Below, in pieces: positions 28 through 39,046 of a stretch of 64,000 nt of DNA. The notes beneath the pieces are model-generated. The model saw nothing but the letters and a program-made list of their open reading frames with translations, was not told the DNA's origin and searched no databases. Both the position numbers and the translations under genes were made by a program. Position 1 is the stretch's first letter, and each line of letters opens with the position of its first letter. Source of the stretch: a virus; the IMG/VR virus record IMGVR_UViG_3300028654_000014, positions 1 through 64,000 of that record. One strand, given 5' to 3'.

Positions 28-219
28 ATGAATAATATAGTAATGGTTATAAATTCAGATTATCCTAGCCCTAAAACTACTATGTTTAATTTATTATCTA
101 ATAAAGGAATAGGGTTTTTAGAAAAAGAGAGATTTATAGGAATGAAAAAATTTGATATTGAAAAAGAAAAACAATATCATTTAAATCAAAATTGGAAGAT
201 ATTAATTGAGTACGAATAA
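28..219 (+). CDS. tagged micro-ORF (ends NWKILIEYE)
   Basis: ORF track; C-terminal hydrophobic-hydrophobic-x-Y-E motif. Confidence 0.7.
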   Translation: MNNIVMVINSDYPSPKTTMFNLLSNKGIGFLEKERFIGMKKFDIEKEKQYHLNQNWKILIEYE

Positions 220-238
220 CAACTAAAAATAGGTAACA

Positions 239-442
239 ATGAATACATTATTTATAAGAAATTGGTTTCAAAATAGTATACAATTGAATCTTGTAAGAAG
301 GAATGAAGATTATACCTATAGTATTAGATATTTAGAAAGTAGGGCAGCGTTTAAAAATTATCAACCAAATAACATAACATTTGAAGTGATAATAAACGAT
401 CATTTACGAAATAATTGGAAGATATTAATGATTTATGATTGA
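239..442 (+). CDS. tagged micro-ORF (ends NWKILMIYD)
   Basis: ORF track; shares AATTGGAAGATATTAAT with 28..219. Confidence 0.7.
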   Translation: MNTLFIRNWFQNSIQLNLVRRNEDYTYSIRYLESRAAFKNYQPNNITFEVIINDHLRNNWKILMIYD

Positions 443-578
443 ATATTATATAGAAATATGGAATGATTATAATTATTTTTGTACTAAAGATAAATATTAT
501 TCTATTTTTCATAAAGAATTTAGACATAATTTTATAAGTGCAGTGAAAAAAGTCCCTCTGTTTACAATAGAGGATTAA
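435..578 (+). CDS. micro-ORF MIEYYIEIW...LFTIED (degenerate family member)
   Basis: Hand-translated; ATG overlaps the TATGATTGA junction of the previous ORF. Confidence 0.5.
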   Translation: MIEYYIEIWNDYNYFCTKDKYYSIFHKEFRHNFISAVKKVPLFTIED

Positions 579-816
579 AGTTAGGTGTGAAGCTAAATAT
601 TAAAACACCAGTCATAATAGGATGTTATGATTAATAAACATATAAAATAGCGCATACTAGTTTGAAAACTGTCTCAAGGTGCCCTATTAGTTTCAAAGAT
701 AAATGCTAATTCTTGGCTGTTAACATCTTTTAAACCCTTTATTATACTATGGAAAAGTATAACTATTTTTAAATCCCCGCCCTAATATTAATAAAAGTTG
801 TGTATTCAAAATCAGA

Positions 817-968
817 TGACAATCGAAGCATAAAGCGAAGATTGTCAATCTATTAAACACTGTCAAACTTATTCCAATATAAATCAATCAGTTAGTAATT
901 ATTGTATTTAAGTTAGTCATTTGTGTATCTTGTAAGTGATTGAAATCATTGTTGGCCCAAGGTTTGCA
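817..968 (+). promoter_or_regulatory. sigma54-type promoter with IHF site and upstream inverted repeat
   Basis: TTGGCCCAAGGTTTGCA (GG 954-955, N10, GC 966-967); AATCAATCAGTTA 882-894 matches IHF consensus WATCAANNNNTTR; inverted repeat TGACAATC 817-824 / GATTGTCA 840-847. Confidence 0.6.
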
Positions 969-981
969 TTAATAATCAAGT

Positions 982-1194
982 ATGAAACATTCAATAACAG
1001 TCCAAATATTCAAACAAGCTAATACTAATGATGAGTTCATTATTGAAACAGATCTTTGTATTGAATTTAAATTAGATGGTAATACAACAGAGTTAATAAC
1101 TAATATAGATGAATACAAAGAATTGAATCCTAGTATTGAAAAATCAATAGATTATGAAATTAGTAGATTTGTATTAAATGGTGGAATATTTTAG
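982..1194 (+). CDS. hypothetical protein
   Basis: ORF just downstream of the -24/-12 element. Confidence 0.65.
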   Translation: MKHSITVQIFKQANTNDEFIIETDLCIEFKLDGNTTELITNIDEYKELNPSIEKSIDYEISRFVLNGGIF

Positions 1195-1223
1195 TTGCGA
1201 AAAATATAAGAAATAGATATAAT
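1195..1223 (+). promoter_or_regulatory. sigma70-type promoter
   Basis: TTGCGA-17-TATAAT, followed by GAGG and ATG 1242. Confidence 0.65.
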
Positions 1224-1241
1224 ATTAAAGTGAGGTATTAA

Positions 1242-3633: not shown

Positions 3634-3807
3634 ATGGCTAAGAAATATACTTTATATTTAGATAATGAAAAACATGAAGATACTAGATATATGGAATTTA
3701 TATCCATGTCTTACAACGATATTATCTATATTTCTAATGATATATTAATTTATCCAAAACAACAAACAATACACGATAGTTTTGTTAAAATATTGGAATA
3801 CAAATGA
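3634..3807 (+). CDS. tagged micro-ORF MAKKYTLYL...VKILEYK
   Basis: Hand-translated 57 aa; ATGA overlap with 3804..4001. Confidence 0.75.
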   Translation: MAKKYTLYLDNEKHEDTRYMEFISMSYNDIIYISNDILIYPKQQTIHDSFVKILEYK

Positions 3808-3979
3808 CATTCGCACAAAAACAAGAACTTAAATTAATAATCCAAAGACTATCCAAAATGGATTATAATAGGAATAGAATCAAACAAATATTAGTTAGCA
3901 AGAATTTATATTTTAATTTTACAAGTCCAATGATATTTGTAAAGAAGAATTTAGGATATAAGGTTTTGGAATATGTTGA

Positions 3980-4351: not shown

Positions 4352-4575
4352 CCTGTAATTGTAAAGCAAATCATATTTATCATGATGGATCTTATGTTTG
4401 TTCGGGATGCGGGAGAAATAAAACCCTTGAACATTTAAATCAATTAGGATATGATTTTAATACAGATTTAAAAGATTATGTAAATAAGGATGGATGTTTG
4501 ATTCATAAATGGAAATCTTATGAAGGTTTCAAAGAAAAATATAACTATTGTGAAGTTTGTGGACAAAAAGAATAA
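4348..4575 (+). CDS. small Cys-rich (Zn-ribbon) protein
   Basis: CxC, CSGCG, HKWKSYEG...YCEVCG. Confidence 0.65.
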   Translation: MTCNCKANHIYHDGSYVCSGCGRNKTLEHLNQLGYDFNTDLKDYVNKDGCLIHKWKSYEGFKEKYNYCEVCGQKE

Positions 4576-4732
4576 ATTATATTATGATATATTTTTTACT
4601 AAAGAAATCCCACAGTTTTGGGTTGTCACAAAAGATAATATATTAATTGATATGAGTTCTAAATTCTCTCTTAGAGATACAAAATTAAATAACAAATTAA
4701 ATGATCCATTAATATTAGAATACGAGGATTAG
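4559..4732 (+). CDS. tagged micro-ORF (ends LILEYED)
   Basis: In ORF-track 4520..4732; GTG 4559 start preferred; contains NKLYY. Confidence 0.65.
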   Translation: MDKKNKLYYDIFFTKEIPQFWVVTKDNILIDMSSKFSLRDTKLNNKLNDPLILEYED

Positions 4733-4734
4733 AA

Positions 4735-6375
4735 ATGCAACAAATGTCTGAATTTTCCAAAACAATCATGCTTCAAAAATACTCCCAAACTTTAAAAGAT
4801 GGTTCAAAAGAAACTTGGGATAATATTTCTTATAGAGTAACCAAAAATGTTATGAAAAGTGTTGGACTTTCAATGAAAGATCAACTTTCAAAAGATATAT
4901 TTGAAGCTATTAAAGATAGAAAATTTATCCCAGGTGGAAGATATCTTTATAGTGCCGGAAGAAATTATCATCAAACACAAAACTGTTTACTATTAAGAGC
5001 AGAAGATTCAAGAGAAGGATGGGCAGATTTATTACAAAAATCAACTCTAGCTTTAATGACTGGAGCTGGAATTGGAATAGTTTATAGTGATATTAGAGGT
5101 GAGGGAAAATTAATAAGAAGTACAGGTGGAAGTTCCACGGGACCAATTTGTTTAATGCAAATGATAAATGAAGCAGGACGAGGAATAATGCAAGGAGGGT
5201 CAAGAAGATCTGCAATATGGGCTGGACTTCATTGGAATCATCCAGACATTCAAAAATTCATTCATATAAAAGATTGGTCAAATGATATAAAGATTTTAAA
5301 AGAAAAAGATTTTAATTTCCCAGCAACATTAGATGGTACAAATATTTCTGTAATATTAGATGATGAATTCTTTGAAGCTTATAAAGATGAGAAACATGAA
5401 TTACATTCAATGGCTCAAAATGTTTATTGGGAAACAATGAGACAAATGTTGAAAACTGCCGAGCCTGGCTTTTCAATTGATGTAGGAGAAAATAAGAATG
5501 AAAATCTTAGGAATGCATGTACAGAAATTACTTCTAGAGATGATTCAGACATTTGTAATCTTGGTTCTATCAATTTATCTCGCATTAATAATCACAGTGA
5601 AATGGAACATATCGTCAATTGCTCCACATCATTTCTCCTTGCTGGAACTGTTTATAGCGATGTTCCTTACGCTCAAGTGGATAAAGTTCGAACTAAAAAT
5701 CGAAGATTAGGTCTAGGATTAATGGGAATTCATGAATGGCTTTTAAAAAATGGTAAAAGTTATGGTAAAGATGATGAATTACAAAAATATCTAGAAATAT
5801 ATCAAACATCTACAAAGATTGCTCATAAATATGCAAAAGAGTGGGAATTATCAAAACCTATTAAAACTCGTGCAATAGCCCCAACAGGTTCAATTGGAAT
5901 TTTAGGAGAAACAACTACAGGCTGTGAACCAATTTTCTGTATTGCATACAAAAGAAGATATTTAAAACATTCAACATGGAACTATCAATATGTAATAGAT
6001 CCAACAGCAAAACGATTAATTGAATCAGGAATCAATCCTGATATTATTGAAGATGCTTATTCAATTGATTTTGAACGAAGAGTTGAAATGCAAAGTTGGT
6101 TACAAAAATATGTAGATCATTCAATAAGTAGTACAATTAATATGCCCAAATGGGGAACAGAAACCAATAATGAAAATACTGTAAGAAAATATGGTGATAT
6201 TTTAATGAAATATTTACCAACTTTAAGAGGTATGACAATTTATCCAAATGAAGCAAGAGGTGGACAACCATTAGTAAGAGTAGATTATAATACAGCTGTT
6301 AGTAATGTTGGACAAGTTTTTGTAGAACAAGCTGATTTATGTGATATTACTGGAAAAGGAAGTTGTGGATCGTAA
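4735..6375 (+). CDS. nrdJ: class II (adenosylcobalamin-dependent) ribonucleotide reductase
   Basis: FIPGGR, NC, NACTE, CNLGSINL, GLGLMG, IAPTGS, ISSTIN motifs; C-terminal Cys pair; no NrdB gene in window. Confidence 0.85.
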   Translation: MQQMSEFSKTIMLQKYSQTLKDGSKETWDNISYRVTKNVMKSVGLSMKDQLSKDIFEAIKDRKFIPGGRYLYSAGRNYHQTQNCLLLRAEDSREGWADLLQKSTLALMTGAGIGIVYSDIRGEGKLIRSTGGSSTGPICLMQMINEAGRGIMQGGSRRSAIWAGLHWNHPDIQKFIHIKDWSNDIKILKEKDFNFPATLDGTNISVILDDEFFEAYKDEKHELHSMAQNVYWETMRQMLKTAEPGFSIDVGENKNENLRNACTEITSRDDSDICNLGSINLSRINNHSEMEHIVNCSTSFLLAGTVYSDVPYAQVDKVRTKNRRLGLGLMGIHEWLLKNGKSYGKDDELQKYLEIYQTSTKIAHKYAKEWELSKPIKTRAIAPTGSIGILGETTTGCEPIFCIAYKRRYLKHSTWNYQYVIDPTAKRLIESGINPDIIEDAYSIDFERRVEMQSWLQKYVDHSISSTINMPKWGTETNNENTVRKYGDILMKYLPTLRGMTIYPNEARGGQPLVRVDYNTAVSNVGQVFVEQADLCDITGKGSCGS

Positions 6376-6589
6376 TGCTTTAATATGTATTCATGATAAT
6401 GAATCCGAACCATCTTTTATAACCAAAAAATCATTAGATGATTATCCTATAGATTCTTGGAAAGAAAAGTTATTGGTAACTTTTATGAAAACTTTTTATC
6501 CCTTTTCACTTAAATTACTAATAAAAGTTGTAAATATAATTGATAAAGATATTACAGCTAAATCTACTATAATTTTAAGGTACGAATGA
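6365..6589 (+). CDS. tagged small ORF (ends IILRYE)
   Basis: ORF-track 6341..6589; GTG 6365 after AAAGGA. Confidence 0.65.
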   Translation: MDRNALICIHDNESEPSFITKKSLDDYPIDSWKEKLLVTFMKTFYPFSLKLLIKVVNIIDKDITAKSTIILRYE

Positions 6590-7296: not shown

Positions 7297-7497
7297 ATGA
7301 ATGATATAAAGAATCTATTATCAGAGGAAGAAATTGATAAGTTAATAAATGAATTGGACTTTGAAGAAAGTCAAACCCAATTTGATTTTGATGATATTAG
7401 GGATCATAATGAAACATTGTGTGATCATCAATTTATAAATTATACAGGATTAAATGAACAATATCAATTCTGTACAGTTTGCGGGGAAAAAAGGTGA
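7297..7497 (+). CDS. small protein with C-terminal Zn-ribbon
   Basis: AAGGAG SD; CDHQFINYTG...FCTVCG. Confidence 0.7.
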   Translation: MNDIKNLLSEEEIDKLINELDFEESQTQFDFDDIRDHNETLCDHQFINYTGLNEQYQFCTVCGEKR

Positions 7498-7673
7498 CAA
7501 CATTATTTATTTCATCTCATAAAGAACATTCAATAAGATGGAGAATCTTTAAAGAAGGAGATTATAATTTATATATGTTTCTAGATGATGGAAAATTAAA
7601 CGTATCTCAATTCAATGTAAATGATATTGGTGTAACACCTAATACTTTAAGGTATATTCTTAAATATGAATAA
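7494..7673 (+). CDS. tagged micro-ORF (ends YILKYE)
   Basis: GTGA overlap with previous stop. Confidence 0.7.
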   Translation: MTTLFISSHKEHSIRWRIFKEGDYNLYMFLDDGKLNVSQFNVNDIGVTPNTLRYILKYE

Positions 7674-7836
7674 ATTCATTTACAATCAATTTTCAGATTT
7701 TACTTATGAATTAGAAAGAGATGAAAAACTTTATATACTTCTTTCTGATAAAAATTTTCATGAATTTAATTATACAGATTTAAGTAAACAATCTACATGG
7801 TATAAGGAAAGAAAGATAGTAATGGTTTATGAATAA
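7666..7836 (+). CDS. tagged micro-ORF MNKFIY...IVMVYE
   Basis: Hand-translated; TATGAATAA junctions at both ends. Confidence 0.75.
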   Translation: MNKFIYNQFSDFTYELERDEKLYILLSDKNFHEFNYTDLSKQSTWYKERKIVMVYE

Positions 7837-7996
7837 ATTTTATTACACGATTCATCCAAAAGGAGATAGTAGTTGGTTAATTTATAGAATTTTGATTAAT
7901 AATAAATTATATTTTCATGATATTGATGACGAACTTCGTAAATCACATTTTGAATTAGATGATTCTAGATTAAAGGAAATACTTCAATATGAATAA
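7829..7996 (+). CDS. tagged micro-ORF MNKFYY...EILQYE
   Basis: Hand-translated. Confidence 0.75.
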   Translation: MNKFYYTIHPKGDSSWLIYRILINNKLYFHDIDDELRKSHFELDDSRLKEILQYE

Positions 7997-8168
7997 ATTA
8001 GGATATTATAATAAATATTCAGATAAAAGTTCTTTATTTATTGTAAAAGGTGAAATTAATATGTTGTATATTGAAGGTTCTCAATTTGATTCCCCGCATA
8101 TAATTAAGAATTATGATCTATGGCATCCAGAAATGAATTATAGCATATGGATATGTGAATATGAATAA
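7989..8168 (+). CDS. tagged micro-ORF MNKLGYY...WICEYE
   Basis: Hand-translated. Confidence 0.75.
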   Translation: MNKLGYYNKYSDKSSLFIVKGEINMLYIEGSQFDSPHIIKNYDLWHPEMNYSIWICEYE

Positions 8169-9245: not shown

Positions 9246-9274
9246 TTGACAATAGGGAAGAATAATGGTATTGT
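9246..9274 (+). promoter_or_regulatory. sigma70-type promoter
   Basis: TTGACA-17-TATTGT with extended -10 TG. Confidence 0.55.
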
Positions 9275-9377
9275 ATATATACAGAGATTTAACTTTCAGT
9301 GTAGAATGGACTATAACACCTACTCCAATCCAAAGGGAATTCATAAAAAGTGATTACTTAACAAAAAGGATTATAAT

Positions 9378-10064
9378 TTGCGAATATTGTTAATGATTTT
9401 AATAAGTTTGAATTTACAGGCAAAAACTCTCAGAGTATTAGAAATTGATACTGGAATTTCACTTTCCCATCAAGAAATTACAGATCATATTGATTTTAGT
9501 AACTTTAATAGAGCAGATTATATAGATGATCATCCAATTTCCCACGGAACTCATATAGCAGGTTTAATAGTTAAAGATACATGTAAACAAGTAGAATTGA
9601 TAAGCTGTAAATACTTCTTTCAAAATACATCACAAGATGTTATAAGAAATGAGATTAATTGTTTTAAAAGAGCTTTAACTTTAAATATTGATGTTATAAA
9701 CTATTCATCTTATGGATATTCTTATGTTAAAGAAGAATATGAACTTTTAAAGCAATTGAGGGATAAAAATATAATAATTATTACATCTGCCGGAAATGAA
9801 GGAAATGATATTTCATTAAAAAGAAACAGAAGATACTTATCAGGATATGATTTATCAAATATTATAGTAGTTGGGAATTTAGAAGCTAATGGAATAAAGA
9901 ATCCTACTAGTAATTATGGATTTCCAGGGATGAAATGGGAGTTGGGAACTGATATTTATTCAACATTAGCCAATGGAAAATTTGGATATTTAACTGGAAG
10001 TTCACAAGCAACTGCAATTCACACAAACAAATGGTTAAAGAAAAAATGTCTAGAGCTAAATTAG
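9378..10064 (+). CDS. subtilisin-like (S8) serine protease with signal peptide
   Basis: IDTG, HGTHIAG, SAGN, GSSQATA catalytic motifs; hydrophobic N-terminus; TTG start. Confidence 0.85.
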   Translation: MRILLMILISLNLQAKTLRVLEIDTGISLSHQEITDHIDFSNFNRADYIDDHPISHGTHIAGLIVKDTCKQVELISCKYFFQNTSQDVIRNEINCFKRALTLNIDVINYSSYGYSYVKEEYELLKQLRDKNIIIITSAGNEGNDISLKRNRRYLSGYDLSNIIVVGNLEANGIKNPTSNYGFPGMKWELGTDIYSTLANGKFGYLTGSSQATAIHTNKWLKKKCLELN

Positions 10065-10216
10065 TAGCAGATCAAGGATTTAAATACATAGGTATCCAAA
10101 GATTTTGGTTATTTAAAGATAATATTGTATATAATTTAAATGAAAAAGTTATAGCTAAACATTTAAGTCAACCAGTAATGAATCAAGATGAAATATTAGT
10201 ACTTGAATATGAATGA
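10046..10216 (+). CDS. tagged micro-ORF (ends LVLEYE)
   Basis: ORF-track 10031..10216. Confidence 0.7.
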   Translation: MSRAKLVADQGFKYIGIQRFWLFKDNIVYNLNEKVIAKHLSQPVMNQDEILVLEYE

Positions 10217-10358
10217 ACTATTTTATAAAGATGATATGTTTATAAAATCAAATGAAGAAGAAATATGTTTTTATGGTTATAAATATACAATGATAGGAAA
10301 TTCATATCTTAATTCACATATAATTCAATCTGGAACTTTCATATTAACTTATGATTGA
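10209..10358 (+). CDS. tagged micro-ORF MNELFYKDD...FILTYD
   Basis: Hand-translated. Confidence 0.75.
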   Translation: MNELFYKDDMFIKSNEEEICFYGYKYTMIGNSYLNSHIIQSGTFILTYD

Positions 10359-10470
10359 ACTATATTGTAGAGATGATATATTTTTTATTCATGTTGGTAA
10401 TGAATTTAAACAATTTGATTTTGATCAACATTTAGATGGAATACATTCACTTATATTAACTTATGAATAG
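10351..10470 (+). CDS. tagged micro-ORF MIELYCRDD...LILTYE
   Basis: Hand-translated. Confidence 0.75.
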   Translation: MIELYCRDDIFFIHVGNEFKQFDFDQHLDGIHSLILTYE

Positions 10471-10591
10471 AATACTAACAATTGTAATATTTGAAAGTGG
10501 CGAAAAAATCTTTTGGTTTGGAAAATATTCAGTATATAAACAAGTTCCAGTGGCAGATGGAAAAGAAATAATAATTTTGAGGTATGAATGA
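10463..10591 (+). CDS. tagged micro-ORF MNRILTIV...IILRYE
   Basis: Hand-translated. Confidence 0.75.
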   Translation: MNRILTIVIFESGEKIFWFGKYSVYKQVPVADGKEIIILRYE

Positions 10592-11076: not shown

Positions 11077-11105
11077 TTGACAATGAAGATAATTAATAGT
11101 ATAAT
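11077..11105 (+). promoter_or_regulatory. consensus sigma70 promoter
   Basis: TTGACA-17-TATAAT. Confidence 0.8.
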
Positions 11106-12276: not shown

Positions 12277-12305
12277 TTGACAGTTTCAATATTATTTGGT
12301 ATAAT
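12277..12305 (+). promoter_or_regulatory. consensus sigma70 promoter
   Basis: TTGACA-17-TATAAT with extended -10 TG; lies inside a small membrane ORF. Confidence 0.7.
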
Positions 12306-20330: not shown

Positions 20331-20991
20331 TTTTAAGCTTGTAAACGCTGATACAGACAGTATTTCCTTTTCCAAGGGTGATGAGTCATTTATTGAAAAA
20401 AGTGAGCGTATAAGCCTTTTAAACGAGATTAATGACCTATTTCCTGAGAAGATCAAGTTCGAAGATGATGGATTCTATAAAACGATTATATGCCTGATGG
20501 CAAAGAATTATGTAATGGAAAAGGAAGATGGTACAGTAATTTATAAAGGTTCTGCTTTAAAAGATGCTAAAAAGGAACCAGCCCTTTATCAATTTATGAA
20601 AGATATAATAGGTTCAATTTTAAACAATAAAAACAACTATTTAGAGATTTATAATCAATATGTTAAAGAAATTAAGGATGTGAAGGATATAAAACGCTGG
20701 GCATCAAAAAAGACCATTACCAAAGCTGTTTTAAAAGCTGAAAGAACCAATGAAAAGAATATACTTGCAGCAATTTCTGAAATCGAGTATAATGAAGGTG
20801 ATAAAATTTCATTGTATTATGATGAGGAAGATGTTTTGAAATTAGCTGATAATTTTGATGGAAAATATTCAAAGACAAGACTTCTGCAAAAATTGTACAA
20901 AACAAGTGAAACTTTTGAATCGATTATTCCAAAGGAAACTTTTATGAACTATTCTTTGAAGAGAAATCAAAAGATATTGGAAGTTTTATGA
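20323..20991 (+). CDS. family B DNA polymerase, C-terminal part (motif C)
   Basis: VNADTDSI, KNY, YKG; GGGGGA SD before ATG. Confidence 0.85.
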   Translation: MHNFKLVNADTDSISFSKGDESFIEKSERISLLNEINDLFPEKIKFEDDGFYKTIICLMAKNYVMEKEDGTVIYKGSALKDAKKEPALYQFMKDIIGSILNNKNNYLEIYNQYVKEIKDVKDIKRWASKKTITKAVLKAERTNEKNILAAISEIEYNEGDKISLYYDEEDVLKLADNFDGKYSKTRLLQKLYKTSETFESIIPKETFMNYSLKRNQKILEVL

Positions 20992-21158
20992 TAAAAAAGA
21001 AACACACATTATACTATATGGTAGAATCATTCTTATATAATAGTGATTTTTTTGTAAATTATGATGATGGTGGATTTTTCTTACCCATTTCTGAAGATGA
21101 TGATCTTATTAAAATTGATCTAGATGAAAATGATGTAAAAATATTGGAATATAAATGA
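20988..21158 (+). CDS. tagged micro-ORF MIKKKHTLYY...DVKILEYK
   Basis: Hand-translated. Confidence 0.75.
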   Translation: MIKKKHTLYYMVESFLYNSDFFVNYDDGGFFLPISEDDDLIKIDLDENDVKILEYK

Positions 21159-21349
21159 AAAAGAAGAAATGGACTTTAATTTATGATAATAGACCTTCGG
21201 AATTATTAGTAGCTGTTGGAATTAAACCTTCTGCTGATAGTTTATTTATTTCATATAGTTATAATGAAACAATATTTTTTGATGATGGATTATTAAAAAT
21301 GAAACTTGGTAAATTAAAATCTGATGTTAAAATATTGGAATATAAATGA
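21155..21349 (+). CDS. tagged micro-ORF MKKKKWTLIY...DVKILEYK
   Basis: ORF track. Confidence 0.75.
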   Translation: MKKKKWTLIYDNRPSELLVAVGIKPSADSLFISYSYNETIFFDDGLLKMKLGKLKSDVKILEYK

Positions 21350-21474
21350 TGGTATTATTTTATTATCCAAGATTATGGTTTGGAGATTTTCCAGTAGTTA
21401 ATTATTGGCCAAAAGATTTATATTTAAAAACTGAAATATTAGCAGGTGAATTTATTATTTGTGAGTATGAATGA
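21346..21474 (+). CDS. tagged micro-ORF MMVLFYY...IICEYE
   Basis: Hand-translated. Confidence 0.75.
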   Translation: MMVLFYYPRLWFGDFPVVNYWPKDLYLKTEILAGEFIICEYE

Positions 21475-21611
21475 TTTTATATAGTTGGTATTCAAAATCT
21501 TTTAATAAATGGTTCATACAAGATCCAATGATGAAATTATATTTCTATAAATATATAATTGAAAAAGAAACAGATTGGATAGATAGAAAAATAATATTGG
21601 AATATGAATGA
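21471..21611 (+). CDS. tagged micro-ORF MILYSWY...IILEYE
   Basis: Hand-translated. Confidence 0.75.
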   Translation: MILYSWYSKSFNKWFIQDPMMKLYFYKYIIEKETDWIDRKIILEYE

Positions 21612-23897: not shown

Positions 23898-24010
23898 TAT
23901 TAGTTTATTGGAGCGAAATATATGCAGATCCATTTAAATTATATCCAATAGAATATTATTGTAATATACCAGTTAGTAAAGTTCATATAAAAGTAATGGA
24001 GTATAAATGA
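23894..24010 (+). CDS. tagged micro-ORF MILVYW...KVMEYK
   Basis: Hand-translated. Confidence 0.75.
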   Translation: MILVYWSEIYADPFKLYPIEYYCNIPVSKVHIKVMEYK

Positions 24011-24621: not shown

Positions 24622-25592
24622 TGGGAGTTTTTAAAGTAAAAAAGATTACCAATATTAATGATGTAAAAGTCAATGATGAACTTCCTGAATCAGATTTCGC
24701 ATCAATGACCAGTGAAGGAAATTTCGTACAACTTGAATATATTGATGATGAACATACAAAAGAACCTTATAAAGTCAAGCCAGGAATTTGGGCAGTACAA
24801 AAAGTAGGTATGAGTTTAAAATTAGAAGCTACAAGCTTTGTAAGTGATAAAATATTAGATTCATTTGTAAGTACAAAGAATATTACTGATAAAATTGATT
24901 GCTTTTTCAATAAAATTCCAGTTTATAAGGAATTGGGATTTGAAGTGGCGAAAAGAGCAGCTTTATTATATGGTCCCGCAGGATGTGGAAAATCGACCAG
25001 CCTTGCATTAGTAGCAAACAAATATACAGCAGATAATAAAACAGCAGTCATAATATGGCATACAGATAAATTTGAGTCATACCAAATTAAGGATTTTATC
25101 AAATCTTTTGAATATGATGGAGTTGAAAAGCTCATTTTGATTATAGAGGATGTTGGAGGAGCAGAAATTGAAGGTGCTCGAATGAAATCTGACAGTTCCC
25201 TACTTTCATTATTAGATAATCAAGAAAAAACCTTTAAGATTCCAGTATTTATACTCGCAACAACAAATTATCCTGAAAATTTCATGGGCAATCTTACAAA
25301 CCGTCCTAATCGATTTGACGATAAAATAGAAGTATCCTATCCAGAAGCAAAACAAAGAGAAGAATTATTATCATTCTTTTTAAAAGAAAGTCCTTCACAA
25401 GAAGCAAAAGATCTGATATTATCTAATAAGACAAAGGAATTTTCAGCGGCTCATATAAGAGAGATAGTGATAAGGTCAAAAATATATGATAAATCAATTG
25501 AAGCTGTCATTACAGAAATGCACAAAGAGATTGAGAAGTATAAGAAAGCCTTTGCAGAAGAACGAAAAATGGGATTCGAAATTGATGATTAA
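24621..25592 (+). CDS. AAA+ ATPase
   Basis: GPAGCGKS, ILIIED, ATTN, NRPNRFD. Confidence 0.9.
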   Translation: MGVFKVKKITNINDVKVNDELPESDFASMTSEGNFVQLEYIDDEHTKEPYKVKPGIWAVQKVGMSLKLEATSFVSDKILDSFVSTKNITDKIDCFFNKIPVYKELGFEVAKRAALLYGPAGCGKSTSLALVANKYTADNKTAVIIWHTDKFESYQIKDFIKSFEYDGVEKLILIIEDVGGAEIEGARMKSDSSLLSLLDNQEKTFKIPVFILATTNYPENFMGNLTNRPNRFDDKIEVSYPEAKQREELLSFFLKESPSQEAKDLILSNKTKEFSAAHIREIVIRSKIYDKSIEAVITEMHKEIEKYKKAFAEERKMGFEIDD

Positions 25593-25689
25593 TGGATATT
25601 ATTGTTTTGATAGTGAACAATTTCATTATTTTCAATCACATTCTTCTTGCAAATCTTGTAATTTTGTATTAGAATATATAAATGATTAA
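25585..25689 (+). CDS. micro-ORF MINGYY...FVLEYIND containing a promoter
   Basis: Hand-translated; TTGCAA-17-TAGAAT at 25647-25675. Confidence 0.5.
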   Translation: MINGYYCFDSEQFHYFQSHSSCKSCNFVLEYIND

Positions 25690-28121: not shown

Positions 28122-28216
28122 AAAAAAGTTTAATATGGATTCCTAAATTAGGAATTAGAAGATGTATAAGAGGTGATATGTTTAAATACGAAACTCTTAT
28201 ATTGGATTATGAATGA
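28118..28216 (+). CDS. tagged micro-ORF MKKSLIW...ETLILDYE
   Basis: Hand-translated, GTG start. Confidence 0.7.
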   Translation: MKKSLIWIPKLGIRRCIRGDMFKYETLILDYE

Positions 28217-28308
28217 AAAATTTAATTTGGTTGAATAATTTAAAATGTTTTATTTGGATTAAAAGAATAGGTGGTACACATGAAACTTTTATATTGGAAT
28301 ATAAATGA
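28213..28308 (+). CDS. tagged micro-ORF MKNLIW...ETFILEYK
   Basis: Hand-translated. Confidence 0.7.
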   Translation: MKNLIWLNNLKCFIWIKRIGGTHETFILEYK

Positions 28309-28631
28309 TAGTAATTTTAAAAGATGAAGTAGTAGGAAAATCTTTACGTATTCCCATAATGATTGGAATTTCGGTATCAGTAAAATTTACATTAACTTCA
28401 ATAGCTAACTCTCAAATTATTGATTGTGAATTTTTAAGAGGAAAAGAATATAAAGCAAAATTAAAAAAAGATCCATTAATAGGAGATGAATTTTATTTTA
28501 TAAAACCAGAAAATTCTTCTAAAATATTTAAATTTGATAAATATGTTATTGATAAACACTTTTATATTAAAACAGAAAAACAAATACATCAAGAGAAATT
28601 TGATAAGAAAATGGATAAGATACTGAAATGA
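28305..28631 (+). CDS. hypothetical protein with FxxKMD C-terminal tag
   Basis: ends QIHQEKFDKKMDKILK. Confidence 0.7.
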   Translation: MIVILKDEVVGKSLRIPIMIGISVSVKFTLTSIANSQIIDCEFLRGKEYKAKLKKDPLIGDEFYFIKPENSSKIFKFDKYVIDKHFYIKTEKQIHQEKFDKKMDKILK

Positions 28632-28825
28632 TTCAATTATATTATATAGATAATACATGGTATGAAAATACTTACGAATTCATTGATTTTTCTAATGGTA
28701 GGAATTTATTGAACAAAAGTAAAAAAGAGATGTCCAGATTTGTTTATAAAGATTATAACGATACTGTTAGAGTTAATAGTGATTATATGTATAAATTAAA
28801 GCTTATTTTTGAAATTAGTGCTTGA
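28628..28825 (+). CDS. micro-ORF MIQLYY...LIFEISA (degenerate family member)
   Basis: ORF track. Confidence 0.6.
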   Translation: MIQLYYIDNTWYENTYEFIDFSNGRNLLNKSKKEMSRFVYKDYNDTVRVNSDYMYKLKLIFEISA

Positions 28826-29182: not shown

Positions 29183-29338
29183 ATGAATAGATTATTTATT
29201 GTAAATGAACCATTAACTTATAAATGGCATTTAGAAAATAATCATGGAGTTCATTATTTCAGTAATGATAAAGTATTAGTTAAGTATGCTGTAGTTATTG
29301 ATTATAGTAAAGGAATATATATTTGTATTTATGATTGA
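29183..29338 (+). CDS. tagged micro-ORF MNRLFIV...YICIYD
   Basis: Hand-translated; coupled to hypothetical 29331..29552. Confidence 0.7.
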   Translation: MNRLFIVNEPLTYKWHLENNHGVHYFSNDKVLVKYAVVIDYSKGIYICIYD

Positions 29339-29896: not shown

Positions 29897-30860
29897 GATA
29901 TTAAAGGCTTACGTCCAACTAGTTCAAACAACAGGAAGGTTTCCAAATTGTAGGGAAGTAGAAAGATTAATCACAAGTGATAGGCAAGTTAGAAAACATT
30001 TTGGAGGATATACAGCTTTAAAAGAAACAGTAATTAAATTTCATCCAGAACTGTTAGAATTTGATCAAACACATGAAAATGAAGCTAAAGTATTAGTATT
30101 TGATATTGAAACTGCTCCTATAACAGCTCACGTTTGGGGATTATGGGAAAATAATGTATCATTGAATCAAATAGTTAAAGATTGGCATGTTTTAAGCTGG
30201 AGCGCAAAATGGTTAGGAAATCAAGAGATACTATACAAAGATCAAAGAAAAAATAAGAATGTAGAAGATGATACTGAAATATTAAAAGGTATCTGGAAAT
30301 TATTAGATGAAGCAGATGTTGTAATTACCCAAAATGGTAAGAGTTTTGATGTTAAGAAACTTAATGCTCGATTTGCTTTAAAAGGAATGAAACCGCCAAG
30401 TAGTTTTAGACACATTGATATTTGTCGCGTGGCTAAAAAACATTTTGGATTTTCAAGTCATAAATTAGAATATATGACCGATAAATTATGTAAGAAATAT
30501 AAGAAGTTAAAGCATAAGAAATTCCAAGGCCATGAATTATGGACCCAATGTTTAGCTGGTAATTTAAAAGCTTGGAAAGAGATGGAAAAGTATAATAAAT
30601 ATGATGTATTATCATTAGAAGAATTGTATTATATTTTAATTCCCTGGGACAATACCATTAACTTTGATATTTATACAAATAAAGAAGAAAATATTTGTAA
30701 ATGTGGAAGTAAGAAATTTGTTAAAAAAGGATTTTATTACACTGCTTCTTCAAAATATCAGAGATATCAATGTATTAAATGTTATGCAGAATCAAGGGAT
30801 AATATTAATTTATTACCAAGTCATAAGAAGGATTCTTTGAAACGTGGCATTACAAGGTAA
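29868..30860 (+). CDS. RNase H-like (DnaQ-type) exonuclease with C-terminal Zn ribbon
   Basis: VFDIET, QNGKSFD, YNKYDV, CKCGS...CIKC. Confidence 0.8.
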   Translation: MIRPNQENGEILKAYVQLVQTTGRFPNCREVERLITSDRQVRKHFGGYTALKETVIKFHPELLEFDQTHENEAKVLVFDIETAPITAHVWGLWENNVSLNQIVKDWHVLSWSAKWLGNQEILYKDQRKNKNVEDDTEILKGIWKLLDEADVVITQNGKSFDVKKLNARFALKGMKPPSSFRHIDICRVAKKHFGFSSHKLEYMTDKLCKKYKKLKHKKFQGHELWTQCLAGNLKAWKEMEKYNKYDVLSLEELYYILIPWDNTINFDIYTNKEENICKCGSKKFVKKGFYYTASSKYQRYQCIKCYAESRDNINLLPSHKKDSLKRGITR

Positions 30861-30861: not shown

Positions 30862-30996
30862 ATGATATTAACTTATATAACTTCTGTATATTATATAGGT
30901 AATATTCATCATATTGAATTTTGGTACGGTCCAGTAAATAATTATTTATCCAATAATTATGGTGATGAAGAAAAGATAATATTGTATTATGAATAA
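30862..30996 (+). CDS. tagged micro-ORF MILTYI...IILYYE
   Basis: Hand-translated. Confidence 0.7.
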   Translation: MILTYITSVYYIGNIHHIEFWYGPVNNYLSNNYGDEEKIILYYE

Positions 30997-31150
30997 AATG
31001 TACTATATTTTTGATACAGGAATGTATCATATTGGAATTCAAACTGCATATAGTATAAGGTATTTTGATTATTCTCATAATGATTGGACATCTATTATTA
31101 ATAGAAAGATACATTACAAAGATATTAGATATGTATTAAATTATGAATAA
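30989..31150 (+). CDS. tagged micro-ORF MNKMYY...YVLNYE
   Basis: Hand-translated. Confidence 0.75.
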   Translation: MNKMYYIFDTGMYHIGIQTAYSIRYFDYSHNDWTSIINRKIHYKDIRYVLNYE

Positions 31151-31204: not shown

Positions 31205-31369
31205 ATGAATAAACTTTTATTAGATGGTACTGGTATTTTTGGTAAAACTAAATATTGGATTATGAAAGATGATAGATTATATGAATCAATAAGTATGCGT
31301 TTATTGGAAAACACAGTTAATGATTTAAATATTAAAAATGATAAAGTTATATTAGAATATGAGGATTAA
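31205..31369 (+). CDS. tagged micro-ORF MNKLLL...VILEYED
   Basis: Hand-translated; preceded by 21-aa hydrophobic ORF 31143..31208. Confidence 0.7.
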   Translation: MNKLLLDGTGIFGKTKYWIMKDDRLYESISMRLLENTVNDLNIKNDKVILEYED

Positions 31370-34601: not shown

Positions 34602-34894
34602 ACGATTTAAAGAATCTTAAAACTCTAGAATATCTATTAAAAGATAAAAACTACTTTGGATATAAATTTTATACTGTTTTTAGACATATTGAATATGATA
34701 GTTATGAAATAACTTTTCTTAATGATGAAAATAAATATTTTAGAATTCAATTATGTCATGGATTAATTTTAGGTATGGAATACAATAATTTAATAGGATA
34801 TATTGATAATATGGTCCATAGTTCCTCAGATTTTAAAAAACTCGCTCATAATCAACAATTTATGAACAAATTTGATAAGATGTTACATGAGTAA
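34598..34894 (+). CDS. hypothetical protein with FxxK(M/F)D C-terminal tag
   Basis: ends LAHNQQFMNKFDKMLHE. Confidence 0.7.
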   Translation: MNDLKNLKTLEYLLKDKNYFGYKFYTVFRHIEYDSYEITFLNDENKYFRIQLCHGLILGMEYNNLIGYIDNMVHSSSDFKKLAHNQQFMNKFDKMLHE

Positions 34895-35057
34895 TATATC
34901 ATATAGATTTAATTCAGTAATAGGATTATTAGAAGCTGGTATTATAACACATAAAGAAGCTATAGAACTTTTAGATTTTAGTAATGTATATTATATTAAT
35001 AATAAATTAATGTGTTTTAGAAAATTTGATATAATAGAAGTATTAAGATATGAGTAA
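34887..35057 (+). CDS. tagged micro-ORF (ends EVLRYE)
   Basis: ORF-track 34872..35057; ATG 34887. Confidence 0.7.
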   Translation: MSNISYRFNSVIGLLEAGIITHKEAIELLDFSNVYYINNKLMCFRKFDIIEVLRYE

Positions 35058-35454: not shown

Positions 35455-36095
35455 AAACTGGTGTGTATAAAATAACAAATATTATAAATAATAAAATTTA
35501 TGTAGGAAGTTCTTGGAAATGTATTATAAAAAGATGGAGATGTCATAAAAGTAATTTAAAAAAGAATAAACATACTAATAAACATCTTCAAAGATCATGG
35601 AATAAACATGGAGAAGAAAATTTTAAATTTGAAGTTTTAGAATATTGTGAGCCTTTAAAATGTATGGAAATAGAACAATATTATATAGATACATTAAATC
35701 CCGAATTTAATATATGTAAAAGAGTTGAAGGTAGGATAGGTTGTAAATTATCTAAAGAACAAATTGAGAGATTAAGGGTAATAAATACAGGTAGACCTGC
35801 GTGGAATAAAGGAAAACCATTTCCAAAAGAAACACGAAAAAGAATGTCTGAATCTAGAAAATTAGGATTAAAAAATGGAACTGTTAAATCTTGGAATAAA
35901 GGAAGATCATTCCCATCAAAAGGACCAGTTTATTGTTCAAATGGTAAAATTTATAAATCTGTAAGAGATGCAGCAAAAGATTTAAAAGTTAAACCAAATA
36001 CAATAGTTAAAGCTTGTACTGATAAAAAGCAAATAAGAAAGGTTAAAAAATTTATAGTATCTTATGATAATATTAATAATGCGAGTAAAGAATAA
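35451..36095 (+). CDS. GIY-YIG homing endonuclease with NUMOD-type repeats
   Basis: GVYKITN...YVGSS, H.NKHLQRSWNK.G, WNKG repeats, YKSVRDAAK. Confidence 0.9.
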   Translation: MKTGVYKITNIINNKIYVGSSWKCIIKRWRCHKSNLKKNKHTNKHLQRSWNKHGEENFKFEVLEYCEPLKCMEIEQYYIDTLNPEFNICKRVEGRIGCKLSKEQIERLRVINTGRPAWNKGKPFPKETRKRMSESRKLGLKNGTVKSWNKGRSFPSKGPVYCSNGKIYKSVRDAAKDLKVKPNTIVKACTDKKQIRKVKKFIVSYDNINNASKE

Positions 36096-36128
36096 TCAAA
36101 AACCAATTAAGATGAAGAAAAGAAAGAA

Positions 36129-36275
36129 ATGAAAGATCCTTTAAAATTATTTAAAAGACTTGGAATAAAGTATTATGATATAATGGATTTTTTCAAAGAA
36201 CCTTTCACATATAAACCATATTATAATTCAAATATATTAAAATATTATAAAAAGAAAATATTGGTATATAAATGA
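36129..36275 (+). CDS. tagged micro-ORF MKDPLKLF...KILVYK
   Basis: Hand-translated. Confidence 0.7.
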   Translation: MKDPLKLFKRLGIKYYDIMDFFKEPFTYKPYYNSNILKYYKKKILVYK

Positions 36276-36403
36276 AAGGTGCTTTCATAGAAGCTGCTAA
36301 ATATTTAATGGGATTTTATAATTTTTATCCATGGGAAATTAAAAGATTTAGTAAATTAAATTGGCTAATATATGGTGATATAAAAATATTGAGGTATAAA
36401 TAA
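36272..36403 (+). CDS. tagged micro-ORF MKGAFIEAAKYLM...KILRYK
   Basis: Hand-translated; N-terminus resembles a segment of the capsid protein. Confidence 0.75.
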   Translation: MKGAFIEAAKYLMGFYNFYPWEIKRFSKLNWLIYGDIKILRYK

Positions 36404-36582
36404 TGGCTGCAACATTTATGGGAATTTCAGATATGAGTAAAATTTTTAAAGAATTATATGCAGATTATTTTTCACCATGGAGATATGATGGAAAGAAATT
36501 AACTTATAATGAAGGTCATCTTTGGACTTCACCCAAAGTTGCTCCTCCTAAAAAAGATTTGATAGTATTGGAATATAAATAA
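36403..36582 (+). CDS. tagged micro-ORF MAATFMG...IVLEYK
   Basis: Hand-translated; TAATG coupling. Confidence 0.75.
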   Translation: MAATFMGISDMSKIFKELYADYFSPWRYDGKKLTYNEGHLWTSPKVAPPKKDLIVLEYK

Positions 36583-36707
36583 TGGGAAACTCAAATTATT
36601 ATGTATATGATTCACCACACTGGGTTTCAGAAAATAATATACTCACTTATATAAGCTTTTATATTCCTTATGAAACTAAACAAACGGAAATATTAAGATA
36701 TGAATGA
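36582..36707 (+). CDS. tagged micro-ORF MGNSNYY...EILRYE
   Basis: Hand-translated; followed by untagged micro-ORF 36700..36822. Confidence 0.7.
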   Translation: MGNSNYYVYDSPHWVSENNILTYISFYIPYETKQTEILRYE

Positions 36708-36807
36708 ATATCAACAAGAAACTGATTGGATCTATGAAAAATGTATATGGTTAAGTAATGGATTTTATTGGTATAATTCAAAATATGAAATAATTCAAAT
36801 ATTTCAA

Positions 36808-36836
36808 TTGACAAATGAATAACTATTTGATATAAT
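36808..36836 (+). promoter_or_regulatory. consensus sigma70 promoter, near-leaderless
   Basis: TTGACA-17-TATAAT; ATG 36846 is 10 nt after the -10 box, no SD. Confidence 0.8.
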
Positions 36837-36845
36837 GGGTAATAT

Positions 36846-37127
36846 ATGATTCAAAAACTACAAGACTTATTAAAGACAATTTTAACTAAATTGAACTTTC
36901 TAGACTATCAACAACAGTTATCTATAAGCAATATAACAGTTGCTGTATTTGTATTTATAGCCGCGATAAGAATGGCTTTTGGAGGTTCGGATTTAAATCT
37001 TGGATTCTTCATATGGAAAATACAAGTTATAGATATAGGTGGAACATTACCAGTTTTCTACTCGCTTTTAAATTATGCACATAAAAGACATATTAACAAT
37101 CAAAATAATGGAGATAATAGTAAATGA
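36846..37127 (+). CDS. membrane protein (holin-like size)
   Basis: Two hydrophobic segments. Confidence 0.5.
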   Translation: MIQKLQDLLKTILTKLNFLDYQQQLSISNITVAVFVFIAAIRMAFGGSDLNLGFFIWKIQVIDIGGTLPVFYSLLNYAHKRHINNQNNGDNSK

Positions 37128-38035
37128 ATAAACTTAAAGACCTTCTAGTTAAATTAAAGAGTAACTTATCTATTCCTTTAAAAGTTGGAATAGTAGGATT
37201 CGCTCTTTTGAGCGGATTTGTAATAATTAAACATTTAAAACACGAAACAAATCTCGGAGATTCAAGTGTAATGATTGTAAATCATGAAGTAACTCATGGT
37301 GGTACAGGAATTATTCTACGATCAACAAGCGGTGAATCTAGTATTCTTACAAATGATCACGTTTGTCGAGCAATTAATACAGGTGGAATAGTAATTTCTC
37401 CAACTGGAACATATCAAATTACAAAGATGCTTGAATCAGAATTAAGTGATTTATGTTTAATATCAGTAGCAGCAGATTTGGGAGTTAATACAAAAATTGC
37501 TCAAAAAGCTCCAGAATTTTATGAAGAAGCACAAGTTTCTGGACATCCAGCTTTGATGCCCAATGTTATTTCTACAGGTCATTTCTCAGGAAGATCAATT
37601 ATTCAAGTTATGACAGGAGTTAGAAAGTGTACTGATGAAGAATTATCTGGTCAACTTGGAATTATTTGTGCATTTTTTGGTGGAATTCCAGTAGTTAAGA
37701 ACTTTGAATCTATTCTTGTAACAGCAACAATTATGCCAGGAAGTAGTGGATCTGGAGTTTATAATAAAGATAAAGAACTAAGTGGTGTAGTATTTGCAGG
37801 GAAAAGCGATTTTGGTTATGCATGGACAGTTCCTTACGAACAAGTTGTAAACTTTCTATTTAAAGAACATAAACATCTTAAAACTAAAGTTGTTTCTCAA
37901 GAAATTAATATTCTTAAAGAAGTCGGTCAAGAAAATAAAACAAAAGAAGTATTACAAAAATGTGCTCAAGAAACGAATGAAGAGATTTTAAACTTTTGTG
38001 AGATACTTAAACAAGATATGACATGGGTAAAATAA
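37124..38035 (+). CDS. membrane-anchored trypsin-like (S1) serine protease
   Basis: LTNDHVC, DLCL, PGSSGSGV; N-terminal TM segment. Confidence 0.85.
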   Translation: MNKLKDLLVKLKSNLSIPLKVGIVGFALLSGFVIIKHLKHETNLGDSSVMIVNHEVTHGGTGIILRSTSGESSILTNDHVCRAINTGGIVISPTGTYQITKMLESELSDLCLISVAADLGVNTKIAQKAPEFYEEAQVSGHPALMPNVISTGHFSGRSIIQVMTGVRKCTDEELSGQLGIICAFFGGIPVVKNFESILVTATIMPGSSGSGVYNKDKELSGVVFAGKSDFGYAWTVPYEQVVNFLFKEHKHLKTKVVSQEINILKEVGQENKTKEVLQKCAQETNEEILNFCEILKQDMTWVK

Positions 38036-38301
38036 TGTTAGATTTATGGAATAAGATTAAAACATGGGCTTTAGGAATTGTTTCTGTAATAGGAGCAATT
38101 TTAGCTGCTCTTTTTTGGTACGAAAAAACAAAGAATGCAGATTTAAAAGCTAAAGATGATAATATTGAAACAAAGAGTAAAGTAGCTCAAATTAATCAAC
38201 AAATTGATGATTTAGAAAAAGAAACAAAGGATAAAGAAAATGAACCACAAACTAAAGAAAGCTTGCTTGATTTCGTTAATAATGTTAACAAGCCTAAATA
38301 G
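38035..38301 (+). CDS. TM + coiled-coil protein (i-spanin-like)
   Basis: Architecture only; overlapped by signal-peptide ORF 38240..38602. Confidence 0.4.
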   Translation: MLDLWNKIKTWALGIVSVIGAILAALFWYEKTKNADLKAKDDNIETKSKVAQINQQIDDLEKETKDKENEPQTKESLLDFVNNVNKPK

Positions 38302-38602
38302 TTTTGCTCAACAAGAATCTGTATATTTAGATAAAGGAACTCCAGCTCCATTCTTTGGATACCTTTTACCAGAAGATACTGTAATTACATTAAGAAATAA
38401 CACTCTCGAAAGAGATATGTATAAAACTGAATCTACTTTAAAAGATCAGCAAATACAACTTCTATCTACTCAAAATGATAATCTTTCCAAGACATTAGAA
38501 AGTACATCAAGTTTAAATGCTTGGGAAAAGATTGGATTTTTTGTAGGTGGAGTTTTAATTACAGGGTTAGCGATTTCAGGTGCCCATGCAATCTACCATT
38601 AA
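38240..38602 (+). CDS. secreted/membrane protein (spanin-like position)
   Basis: Signal peptide, coiled coil, C-terminal hydrophobic helix. Confidence 0.45.
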   Translation: MNHKLKKACLISLIMLTSLNSFAQQESVYLDKGTPAPFFGYLLPEDTVITLRNNTLERDMYKTESTLKDQQIQLLSTQNDNLSKTLESTSSLNAWEKIGFFVGGVLITGLAISGAHAIYH

Positions 38603-38711
38603 ATTAGTAATTGGTACTAATCCTTTTGTTAGAAGTTATTGTTTTATAATAGAAGATGAATATAGTTTTAGAAATTTATTACCTTCTCGATTAGTTTTGG
38701 AATATGAATAA
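38586..38711 (+). CDS. tagged micro-ORF MQSTIKLV...LVLEYE
   Basis: Hand-translated. Confidence 0.7.
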   Translation: MQSTIKLVIGTNPFVRSYCFIIEDEYSFRNLLPSRLVLEYE

Positions 38712-38889
38712 CAAATTATACTACGATAATCAAAAAAATGATCCAGATAAATTTGTAATATTCTTTCAAGAATCGAATTTAAAATATTATAATACTAGAG
38801 TTGACGATTGGGTTTATTCTGGAATTCATGTAATAAAAGATATAAATAAATTAGTTAGAATAATGGAATATGAACAAACTATATTATAA
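38704..38889 (+). CDS. tagged micro-ORF MNNKLYY...RIMEYEQTIL
   Basis: ORF track. Confidence 0.75.
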   Translation: MNNKLYYDNQKNDPDKFVIFFQESNLKYYNTRVDDWVYSGIHVIKDINKLVRIMEYEQTIL

Positions 38890-39046
38890 TACAAATCCTG
38901 ATTTTGGATGGTTTATTAAATTTAACAATACAGATGGTTTACATTTTAATAAATTAGAAATCTTTCAAGAAGTTGAAAATGGACAAAAATCTACAGATAT
39001 ACTGATAATGGAATATGAAGAAGATAATAACAGAACTAACGGATGA
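38870..39046 (+). CDS. tagged micro-ORF MNKLYY...LIMEYEEDNNRTNG
   Basis: Hand-translated. Confidence 0.7.
   Translation: MNKLYYNTNPDFGWFIKFNNTDGLHFNKLEIFQEVENGQKSTDILIMEYEEDNNRTNG

Follow-up and report, generated by a model that had tools for sequence, protein, structure and literature searches.

What are the several dozen very short open reading frames (ORFs) that end in almost the same residues and are dispersed between the core genes of an uncultured soil phage? They lie in bases 1-64000 (the window, i.e., the whole stretch analysed, 64,000 nt) of the 82,221-b IMG/VR virus record IMGVR_UViG_3300028654_000014, which is judged 96% complete, and an earlier note on this DNA had described them as micro-proteins with a constant C-terminal tag and variable middles. 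The joint explanation that we favour, with some confidence, is an expanded family of beta mini-proteins with fixed terminal strands that forms a diversified early host-interaction set. The structural and evolutionary description of this family is put forward with good confidence; the functional step, according to which its members may be diversified small binders for host takeover or counter-defence, is tentative.

The tagged ends are far more frequent than chance allows. Among stop-to-stop frames of at least 20 codons, 32 of the 364 on the + strand of bases 1-39500 end in [IV][ILMCV]xY[EDK], against none of the 632 on the - strand of the same bases and none on either strand of 39501-64000. 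When the early block was simulated with Markov models, such ends numbered on average 0.28 at order 2 (maximum 2) and 0.37 at order 5 (maximum 3). A slightly wider motif occurs 58 times across the three + frames, 35 times immediately 5' of a stop. When all 667 ORFs of at least 25 aa in the 82-kb genome were searched with a hidden Markov model (HMM) of the family, 43 matched at E<0.05, all confined to the + early block and to one - strand block at 79.7-80.8 kb, and the best control ORF reached E=0.1.

The window holds 45 members, namely 41 clear ones (31-74 aa, 6495 nt in total), three with degenerate tails (435-578, 23606-23746 and 28628-28825) and one truncated by the contig start. Another four members are situated elsewhere in the genome, and the family makes up about 40% of the ORFs called in the early/replication block. 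As in a lineage-specific expansion, the copies fall under one profile and cluster in arrays: 11 of the 19 family loci hold 2-4 chained copies. All arrays and singletons of the earlier note were recovered at their coordinates and one member, 9265-9393, was added; the last ORF region resolves into a member (38870-39046) with an ordinary T-ATG start inside the preceding tag. For the window, the note is right that members occur on the + strand only and never in the late block; for the genome it is not, as four - strand members are found at 79772-80824. Aromatic residues are abundant, as had been noted (17.4% against 10-11% in other early proteins; Tyr 9.4%), predicted isoelectric points (pI) span 4.2-9.8, and the middles are indeed unrelated, since 2 of 820 member pairs reach E<0.01, equal to shuffled controls.

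Selection on the ORFs could be measured in two related contigs, L055 and L016. The ratio of non-synonymous to synonymous substitution rates (dN/dS) is below 1 over the whole ORFs of four diverged orthologous micro-genes (0.10, 0.16, 0.25 and 0.63; pooled 0.35), with 0.13-0.50 in flanking genes. Spurious ORFs are ruled out by dN/dS, by the specificity of the HMM and by the restriction to one strand; these are genuine genes, belonging to a single family of 31-74-aa proteins that is specific to the lineage and has expanded greatly.

Concerning known families, none of 51 members scanned singly against Pfam-A, PHROGs v4 and NCBIfam 20 gave a significant match. The best E-values (PHROGs 0.014, Pfam 0.033, NCBIfam 0.041) each belong to a different single member, and the sole catalogue family matched twice was phrog_3711 (E 0.17-0.28). 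A profile search of PDB sequences returned 0 matches at E<=5. Two billion-scale protein searches with family profiles recovered proteins of this phage group only, and longer or fused forms sought at that scale were not found. An exhaustive HMMER search at the same scale gave 8 matches, all from this phage; the ESM Atlas was without usable match, as was a tblastn search with one member against 50,697 phage records. At the DNA level, L055 and L016 came from a scan of viral contigs for a single tag followed by a TGA stop, in which most of the 56 matches are chance ones, scans of viral contigs with double-tag and TAA-stop patterns found no further arrays, and satellites and other repeats dominate among the matches listed for a double-tag scan of metagenomes. 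Judged by these sequence searches, the family itself appears to be undescribed, as the earlier note had assumed.

The C-terminal consensus consists of a polar turn, [KGN][KND][DE], and a 7-residue strand, h-x-[IV]-[LMC]-x-Y-[EKD]. In the alignment of the C-termini Tyr at -2 is invariant (51/51), positions -7, -5 and -4 are hydrophobic, and -3 is variable; the final residue varies among E, K, D, Q, N, T, I and V. Given 51 aligned paralogues, AlphaFold2 predicted an all-beta structure for the 55-aa member 7829-7993 (mean predicted local distance difference test score, pLDDT, 92.6; all five models >=86) with strands at 2-11, 14-23, 26-30, 36-38 and 49-54. The N-terminal motif M-x-x-L-[YF]-[YW] corresponds to strand 1 of the model and the tag to the last strand, with pLDDT above 90. 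The prediction for the 39-aa member 10351-10470 (pLDDT 67.9) has four strands, of which the first and last are the same as in the 55-aa member, and a homodimer prediction for this member scored 0.01. The tag is thus most likely a structural strand of a miniature beta domain, as the models suggest, and not a free docking tail. A Foldseek search of PDB and BFVD with the 55-aa model yielded nothing at E<0.001. SH3-like modules (bL19, KorB C-domain, NusG/Spt5 KOW, NdhS, PsaE, Tudor, integrase C-domain) are among the rows tied at Z 3.3-4.3 in VIA-align.

Two uses of the tag had been proposed in the earlier note, pairing with the N-terminal strand or docking on one shared partner. The predicted models place the tag as a strand in a common fold with the N-terminal strand, and nothing supports the second proposal. 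In its broader form it makes the tag a signal for docking, sorting or degradation that one shared partner would read, with the variable bodies as cargo or effectors; such a signal would account for an invariant Tyr and a constant terminus of 5-7 residues on otherwise unrelated sequences, and the encoded S8 and trypsin-like peptidases or the MoxR/VWA-metallopeptidase pair could act on tagged proteins. The nearest precedent for a tag plus effector is given by the internal proteins of T-even phages, diverse small proteins that act against host defences and have only a capsid-targeting sequence in common (PMC3012670). That sequence, however, is N-terminal, is cleaved by the prohead protease and directs packaging, whereas the constant part of the present family is C-terminal and predicted to be a core strand, its genes lie in the replication block, away from head genes, and a conserved N-terminal targeting peptide was not found, the N-terminal motif being short and confined to about a third of members. 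Moreover, the last residue is variable, several members continue for 1-8 residues beyond the tag, which a C-terminal recognition signal would tolerate poorly, and no candidate partner gene was found to co-occur with the family. We therefore regard a docking signal as improbable.

When array content was compared among related contigs, as had been suggested together with the first description, rapid turnover was found. L055 and L016, close relatives (portal 85%, TerL 73% identical), contain 7-8 members each, of 30-43 aa. At the locus syntenic to genome 79772-80824 they have different members from those of the present phage, and L055 differs from L016 by one member; turnover thus occurs between relatives with flanking genes 65-85% identical. 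The family HMM had no match in the complete or near-complete relatives G001, G002 and G004 (PolB 50-55% identical). In L002, from one of these relatives, PolB, GT9, p216 and p204 are packed back to back, whereas the present genome has three arrays there; the core genes on either side of the arrays stand next to each other in more distant relatives. The tag-like ends of PolB (KILEVL) and GT9 (KVLEEIL) were considered as insertion scars and rejected, because array-less relatives end in the same or a similar way.

Within the genome, the ends of neighbouring members match each other better than those of members that are not neighbours (21.5 vs 17.6 of 42 nt, p<5e-5), a sign of local duplication or conversion. 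Genes of GIY-YIG or HNH endonucleases adjoin several arrays, both here and in L055. Contigs of four rhizosphere runs are near-identical to the window, and their sole population signal is one deletion joint: one Logan contig (rhizosphere run, depth about 6) joins 35476 to 36384 over a 7-nt microhomology, such that 35477-36383, with the GIY-YIG gene and the first two array members, is removed, while the Shine-Dalgarno sequence (SD; GAGG) and the start of 36403 are kept. As a separate observation, several contigs of rhizosphere runs leave the window sequence at the same points (22449, 28234, 28798-28825 and 30291-30341), some of them in or beside micro-genes, which suggests co-occurring mosaic relatives.

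These patterns could also be produced by a selfish or near-neutral expansion, in which translated and foldable mini-genes spread by local duplication and by hitch-hiking with homing endonucleases, and owe their persistence to the start signals that each provides for the following gene, being of no service to the phage. The greatest likeness being between adjacent members, the rapid change of content between relatives, the absence from complete relatives, the endonuclease genes beside arrays in two genomes and the contig that lacks an endonuclease and two members jointly are all as expected under such a process. On the other hand, purifying selection is found in three of the four diverged orthologue pairs, about 45 intact frames with the fold signature are retained in an 82-kb genome limited by capsid size, and decayed copies number only 3-4. 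An expansion without any function for the phage thus seems hardly likely.

Whether the conservation resides in the peptide or in the DNA is best seen at the junctions between chained genes, which, as had been claimed, are coupled by start/stop overlaps. They are of two types. Of the first, a 4-nt ATGA or TAATG junction (n=17), all but one have an SD-like GGA/GAG/AGG (16 of 17), placed at -9 relative to the following ATG; it is built from tag codons -4/-3 (TTG-GAA, ATG-GAA, ATG-GAG, TTG-AGG, TGT-GAG and the like), leaving about 6 nt before the ATG, and the Leu codon is TTG in 12 of 13. Every junction of the array 20988..21611 is of the ATGA type with its SD within the tag, and the non-family genes of the phage use GGA/GGAG/AGG, 6-11 nt 5' of the ATG. 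At the second type, an 8-nt T-ATG-AAT-AA or T-ATG-ATT-GA overlap (n=16), an SD is present in one case, the peptide motif is equally intact, and the Leu codons (TTA 6, CTT 4, TTG 2) are background-like. The persistence of the motif at SD-less 8-nt junctions with background codons argues that the peptide is selected in its own right, whereas the overlaid SD explains part of the tag consensus, i.e., E or R at position x and the TTG and ATG codons. The tag is thus under protein-level selection, with a ribosome-binding site (RBS) superimposed at about half of the junctions; wherever ATGA is the start of the following gene, codon choice and the exposed position x would appear, from the sequence, to serve the downstream RBS in addition. 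The overlaps also dictate residues 2-3 of the following protein (MN[KNE], MIE, M[IKTMN]), which explains part of the related N-terminus, but L-[YF]-[YW] at positions 4-6 lies beyond them.

It has to be asked, then, whether conservation is essentially a matter of DNA, the junction being a cassette for translational coupling and ribosome binding and/or a recombination site, and the peptides incidental. TTG is used for 14 of 26 tag Leu codons against 5-9% in the background, ATA for 20 of 25 Ile codons, the SD is nearly constant at ATGA-type junctions, and some neighbours are near-identical in head and tail DNA with unrelated middles. Synonymous variation in the tag, which the earlier note took as a sign of protein-level selection, is real and the Tyr codons are background-like (TAC in 5/35, equal to the background usage of 14%), but the bias of Leu to TTG adds a constraint at the nucleotide level. 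Substitutions in the tag are non-synonymous yet conservative (I/V, L/M/C, E/K/D). A precedent for repeated regulatory DNA that drives shuffling exists in the promoter-early stem-loop (PeSL) cassettes in hyperplastic regions of T4-type phages (Arbiol et al. 2010, PMC2839356; Comeau et al. 2014, PMC4122927), with which the present arrays have in common short repeated junctions between small accessory genes set among core genes, most of the differences between close relatives, and recombination between repeats as the suspected driver. PeSLs, however, are non-coding and combine a sigma-70-like promoter with a stem-loop terminator, whereas the repeat described here is coding and leaves no intergenic space, consisting of the last strand of one protein and the overlapping start of the next, sometimes with an SD; no terminator-like sites or hairpins were found inside or beside the arrays. 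An explanation at the DNA level is in our judgement very improbable, since the 16 junctions of the 8-nt type keep the peptide without SD in all cases but one, Tyr at -2 is found in none of 23 non-family genes with the same ATGA overlap, whole-ORF dN/dS is below 1 in related phages, the predicted fold is confident, and the N-terminal aromatic motif lies outside the overlaps. Arrays of precursors of ribosomally synthesised and post-translationally modified peptides were rejected, as Pfam scans of 30 larger window proteins, mostly of the early block, revealed no maturase but solely domains for replication, recombination, peptidases, glycosyltransferases and endonucleases, both termini are conserved and a compact fold is predicted for the 55-aa member.

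According to the explanation favoured here, the fold would be stabilised by the conserved terminal strands, whose Tyr and Leu would point into the core, and the variable loops and middle strands would present differing surfaces; the proteins would be made together with the replication genes from polycistronic mRNAs, and would be small binders that handle host proteins for takeover or counter-defence. The earlier note had likewise proposed that the variable middles may bind host targets, in anti-defence or as adaptors. The early/replication context, the chaining without terminators and the varied charge fit a diversified set of binders best, and so do purifying selection within lineages, fast turnover between them and a fixed scaffold with variable loops. 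Several points weigh against this explanation. The proposed N-terminal strand, said to be shared by many members, is enriched (14 of 44 members by the strict motif, against 2 of 66 non-family genes) but is present in only about a third of them. That the first and last strands pair directly is itself inferred from the models; the high-confidence model concerns the 55-aa member alone, and members of 31-39 aa may not fold alone. The similarity to SH3-like barrels is weak (best VIA-align Z 4.3). The TTG and ATA codon biases mean that forces at the DNA level contribute, and some neighbours have near-identical ends, with 17955-18149 and 18142-18324 having 21/21 head and 23/24 tail bases in common around unrelated middles. 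Finally, no RNA runs are listed among the metagenome occurrences of the phage.

A bolder version of the same explanation, which we hold to be possible but rather doubtful, would see in the family a natural library of about 45 binders on one beta scaffold of 30-70 residues, each set of loops engaging a different host protein or defence system. The fold would be kept constant by the two terminal strands, and local duplication at the junctions, which carry the translation signals too, would be the source of new specificities. Such a library would be a viral counterpart of engineered mini-binders of the SH3/Sso7d type.

As a phenomenon, the family belongs with the lineage-specific arrays of small paralogues in large phages and DNA viruses, with which it has in common dozens of diverged copies, overlapping head-to-tail packing, and gain and loss; copies turn over between close relatives and are absent from distant ones. 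In contrast to those arrays, the present phage is not a jumbo phage but a mid-sized one of 82 kb with a P22-like portal, and its copies are dispersed over 19 sites among core replication genes and not collected in one block. Concerning the fold, the T4 proteins GoF, MotB.1 and Frd.2, LSm-like early proteins with a small beta-barrel of SH3 type (PMC12152347), are likewise tiny, all-beta and dissimilar in sequence with agreeing predicted folds; however, the present family has no Sm motif and no uniform basic charge, and there are three such proteins in T4 against about 45 paralogues here. Small SH3/LSm-like early proteins may be the nearest fold, but the resemblance is weak and below the level that shows membership of a common fold.

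Table. Position, strand and characteristics of the family members, locus by locus (window positions unless stated otherwise).
Feature	Position	Strand	Characteristics
Array of 4	1..578	+	1-35, 3' end cut by contig start (VLKYE); 28-219, 63 aa, ILIEYE; 239-442, 67 aa, ILMIYD; 435-578, 47 aa, N-terminus MIEYY, degenerate tail LFTIED
Singleton	3634..3807	+	57 aa, end KILEYK; ATGA junction, TTG-GAA as SD for next gene
Singleton, GTG start	4559..4732	+	57 aa; one residue beyond tag (LILEYED); immediately 5' of ribonucleotide reductase gene
Singleton, GTG start	6365..6589	+	74 aa, end IILRYE; immediately 3' of ribonucleotide reductase gene
Array of 4	7494-7673, 7666-7836, 7829-7996, 7989-8168	+	55-59 aa; 8-nt overlaps T-ATG-AAT-AA, without SD
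AlphaFold2-modelled members	7829-7996, 10351-10470	+	55 aa (first), 39 aa (second)
Singleton, absent from earlier list	9265..9393	+	42 aa, N-terminus MVLYIY, end IICEYC; 5' of S8 peptidase gene
Array of 4	10046-10216, 10209-10358, 10351-10470, 10463-10591	+	39-56 aa
Array of 3	17753-17962, 17955-18149, 18142-18324	+	60-69 aa; immediately 5' of N-terminal part of PolB
Array of 4	20988-21158, 21155-21349, 21346-21474, 21471-21611	+	42-64 aa; between C-terminal part of PolB and GT9
Array of 3	22534-22656, 22653-22790, 22787-22990	+	KILEYT, FILEYE and IIMSYK (67 aa), respectively; after GT9
Array of 3	23606-23746, 23739-23897, 23894-24010	+	TTG start, degenerate EFREYND; LIMEYK; 38 aa, KVMEYK
Singleton	25585..25689	+	34 aa, N-terminus MINGYY; three residues beyond tag (FVLEYIND)
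Array of 2, shortest members	28118-28216, 28213-28308	+	32 aa, LILDYE; 31 aa, FILEYK
Member, probably decayed	28628..28825	+	65 aa, family N-terminus MIQLYYID, tail LIFEISA, HMM E 2.2
Singleton	29183..29338	+	51 aa, end YICIYD
Array of 3	30862-30996, 30989-31150, 31205-31369	+	IILYYE; YVLNYE; VILEYED; between RNase H-like/exonuclease and RecA-like genes
Singleton	34887..35057	+	56 aa, end EVLRYE
Array of 4	36129-36275, 36272-36403, 36403-36582, 36582-36707	+	41-59 aa; immediately 3' of GIY-YIG homing endonuclease gene
Array of 3	38586-38711, 38704-38889, 38870-39046	+	LVLEYE; IMEYE + QTIL; IMEYE + 8 residues
4 members outside window	genome 79772-80824 (L308 15772-16824)	-	tails ICEYV, VCEYI, ICEYE, ILEYV

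Within the table, the last two members of the array at 38586 deserve mention, as the stop after the tag is replaced by a sense codon (CAA in 38704-38889, GAA in 38870-39046) and the T-ATG start of the next gene within the tag is kept; these run-on members look like recent stop losses with coupled starts intact. The N-terminal part (about 25 residues) of 22787-22990 is strongly hydrophobic (grand average of hydropathy +0.46, pI 9.6), such that this protein, unlike other members, may be membrane-anchored. The small-gene block on the - strand that holds the four members outside the window also has a GIY-YIG endonuclease gene and is situated about 0.7-2 kb upstream of the small-terminase-like and TerL genes, with an oppositely oriented endolysin pair between.

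The early block (bases 1-39.7 kb, GC about 0.26) contains genes exclusively on the + strand, whereas beyond 40 kb the genes are on the - strand and code for large structural proteins. According to Pfam scans, the early block encodes a ribonucleotide reductase, a PD-(D/E)XK nuclease, an S8 peptidase, an ERF recombinase, an AEP-primase/DnaB helicase, an endonuclease VII-like protein, a two-part family B polymerase, a GT9 glycosyltransferase, an NTP-transferase, AAA ATPases, a MoxR and VWA-metallopeptidase pair, an RNase H-like exonuclease, a RecA-like protein, a dUTPase, a GIY-YIG endonuclease and a trypsin-like peptidase. The polymerase is split into ORFs 18317-19804 and 20323-20991, with a 180-aa ORF without Pfam match between them; in the relative L002 it is a single unsplit protein of 711 aa. 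The phage is present in several rhizosphere metagenomes, an 88,650-b contig also encodes identical proteins, and the closest cultured terminase, TerL of a Silvanigrella phage, is only 30% identical. Low-GC Gram-negative bacteria of the rhizosphere are the candidate hosts.

Three + strand promoters with a perfect 12/12 sigma-70 consensus (TTGACA, 17 nt, TATAAT) are found at 11077-11105, 12277-12305 and 36808-36836, the last in the sole sizeable gap after the array 36129-36707. Promoter-like sites are not enriched over shuffled sequences (160 found vs 149 expected; 142 vs 143), AT-rich DNA making such a scan uninformative. At the contig end (genome 82020-82221), the last 200 bases are atypical in not being AT-rich and contain C-rich runs (C6, then C10 + TCCC), which may reflect either a physical terminus or an artefact of assembly.

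The family is unusual in its share of a mid-sized genome, in its dispersal over 19 sites between core genes and in its clean internal control for dual coding, provided by the two junction types within one genome. If the explanation favoured here is true, one set of codons would be constrained twice, for a structural beta strand and, at half of the junctions, for the RBS of the next gene. The 55-aa member, with its high predicted pLDDT, would be an easy target for structure determination and for host-target or anti-defence screens. Roughly a third of the genes of this phage would then be variations on one miniature fold that no database knows, and the family would show in compact natural form how phages diversify their small early proteins, which are less well understood than any other part of their genomes.

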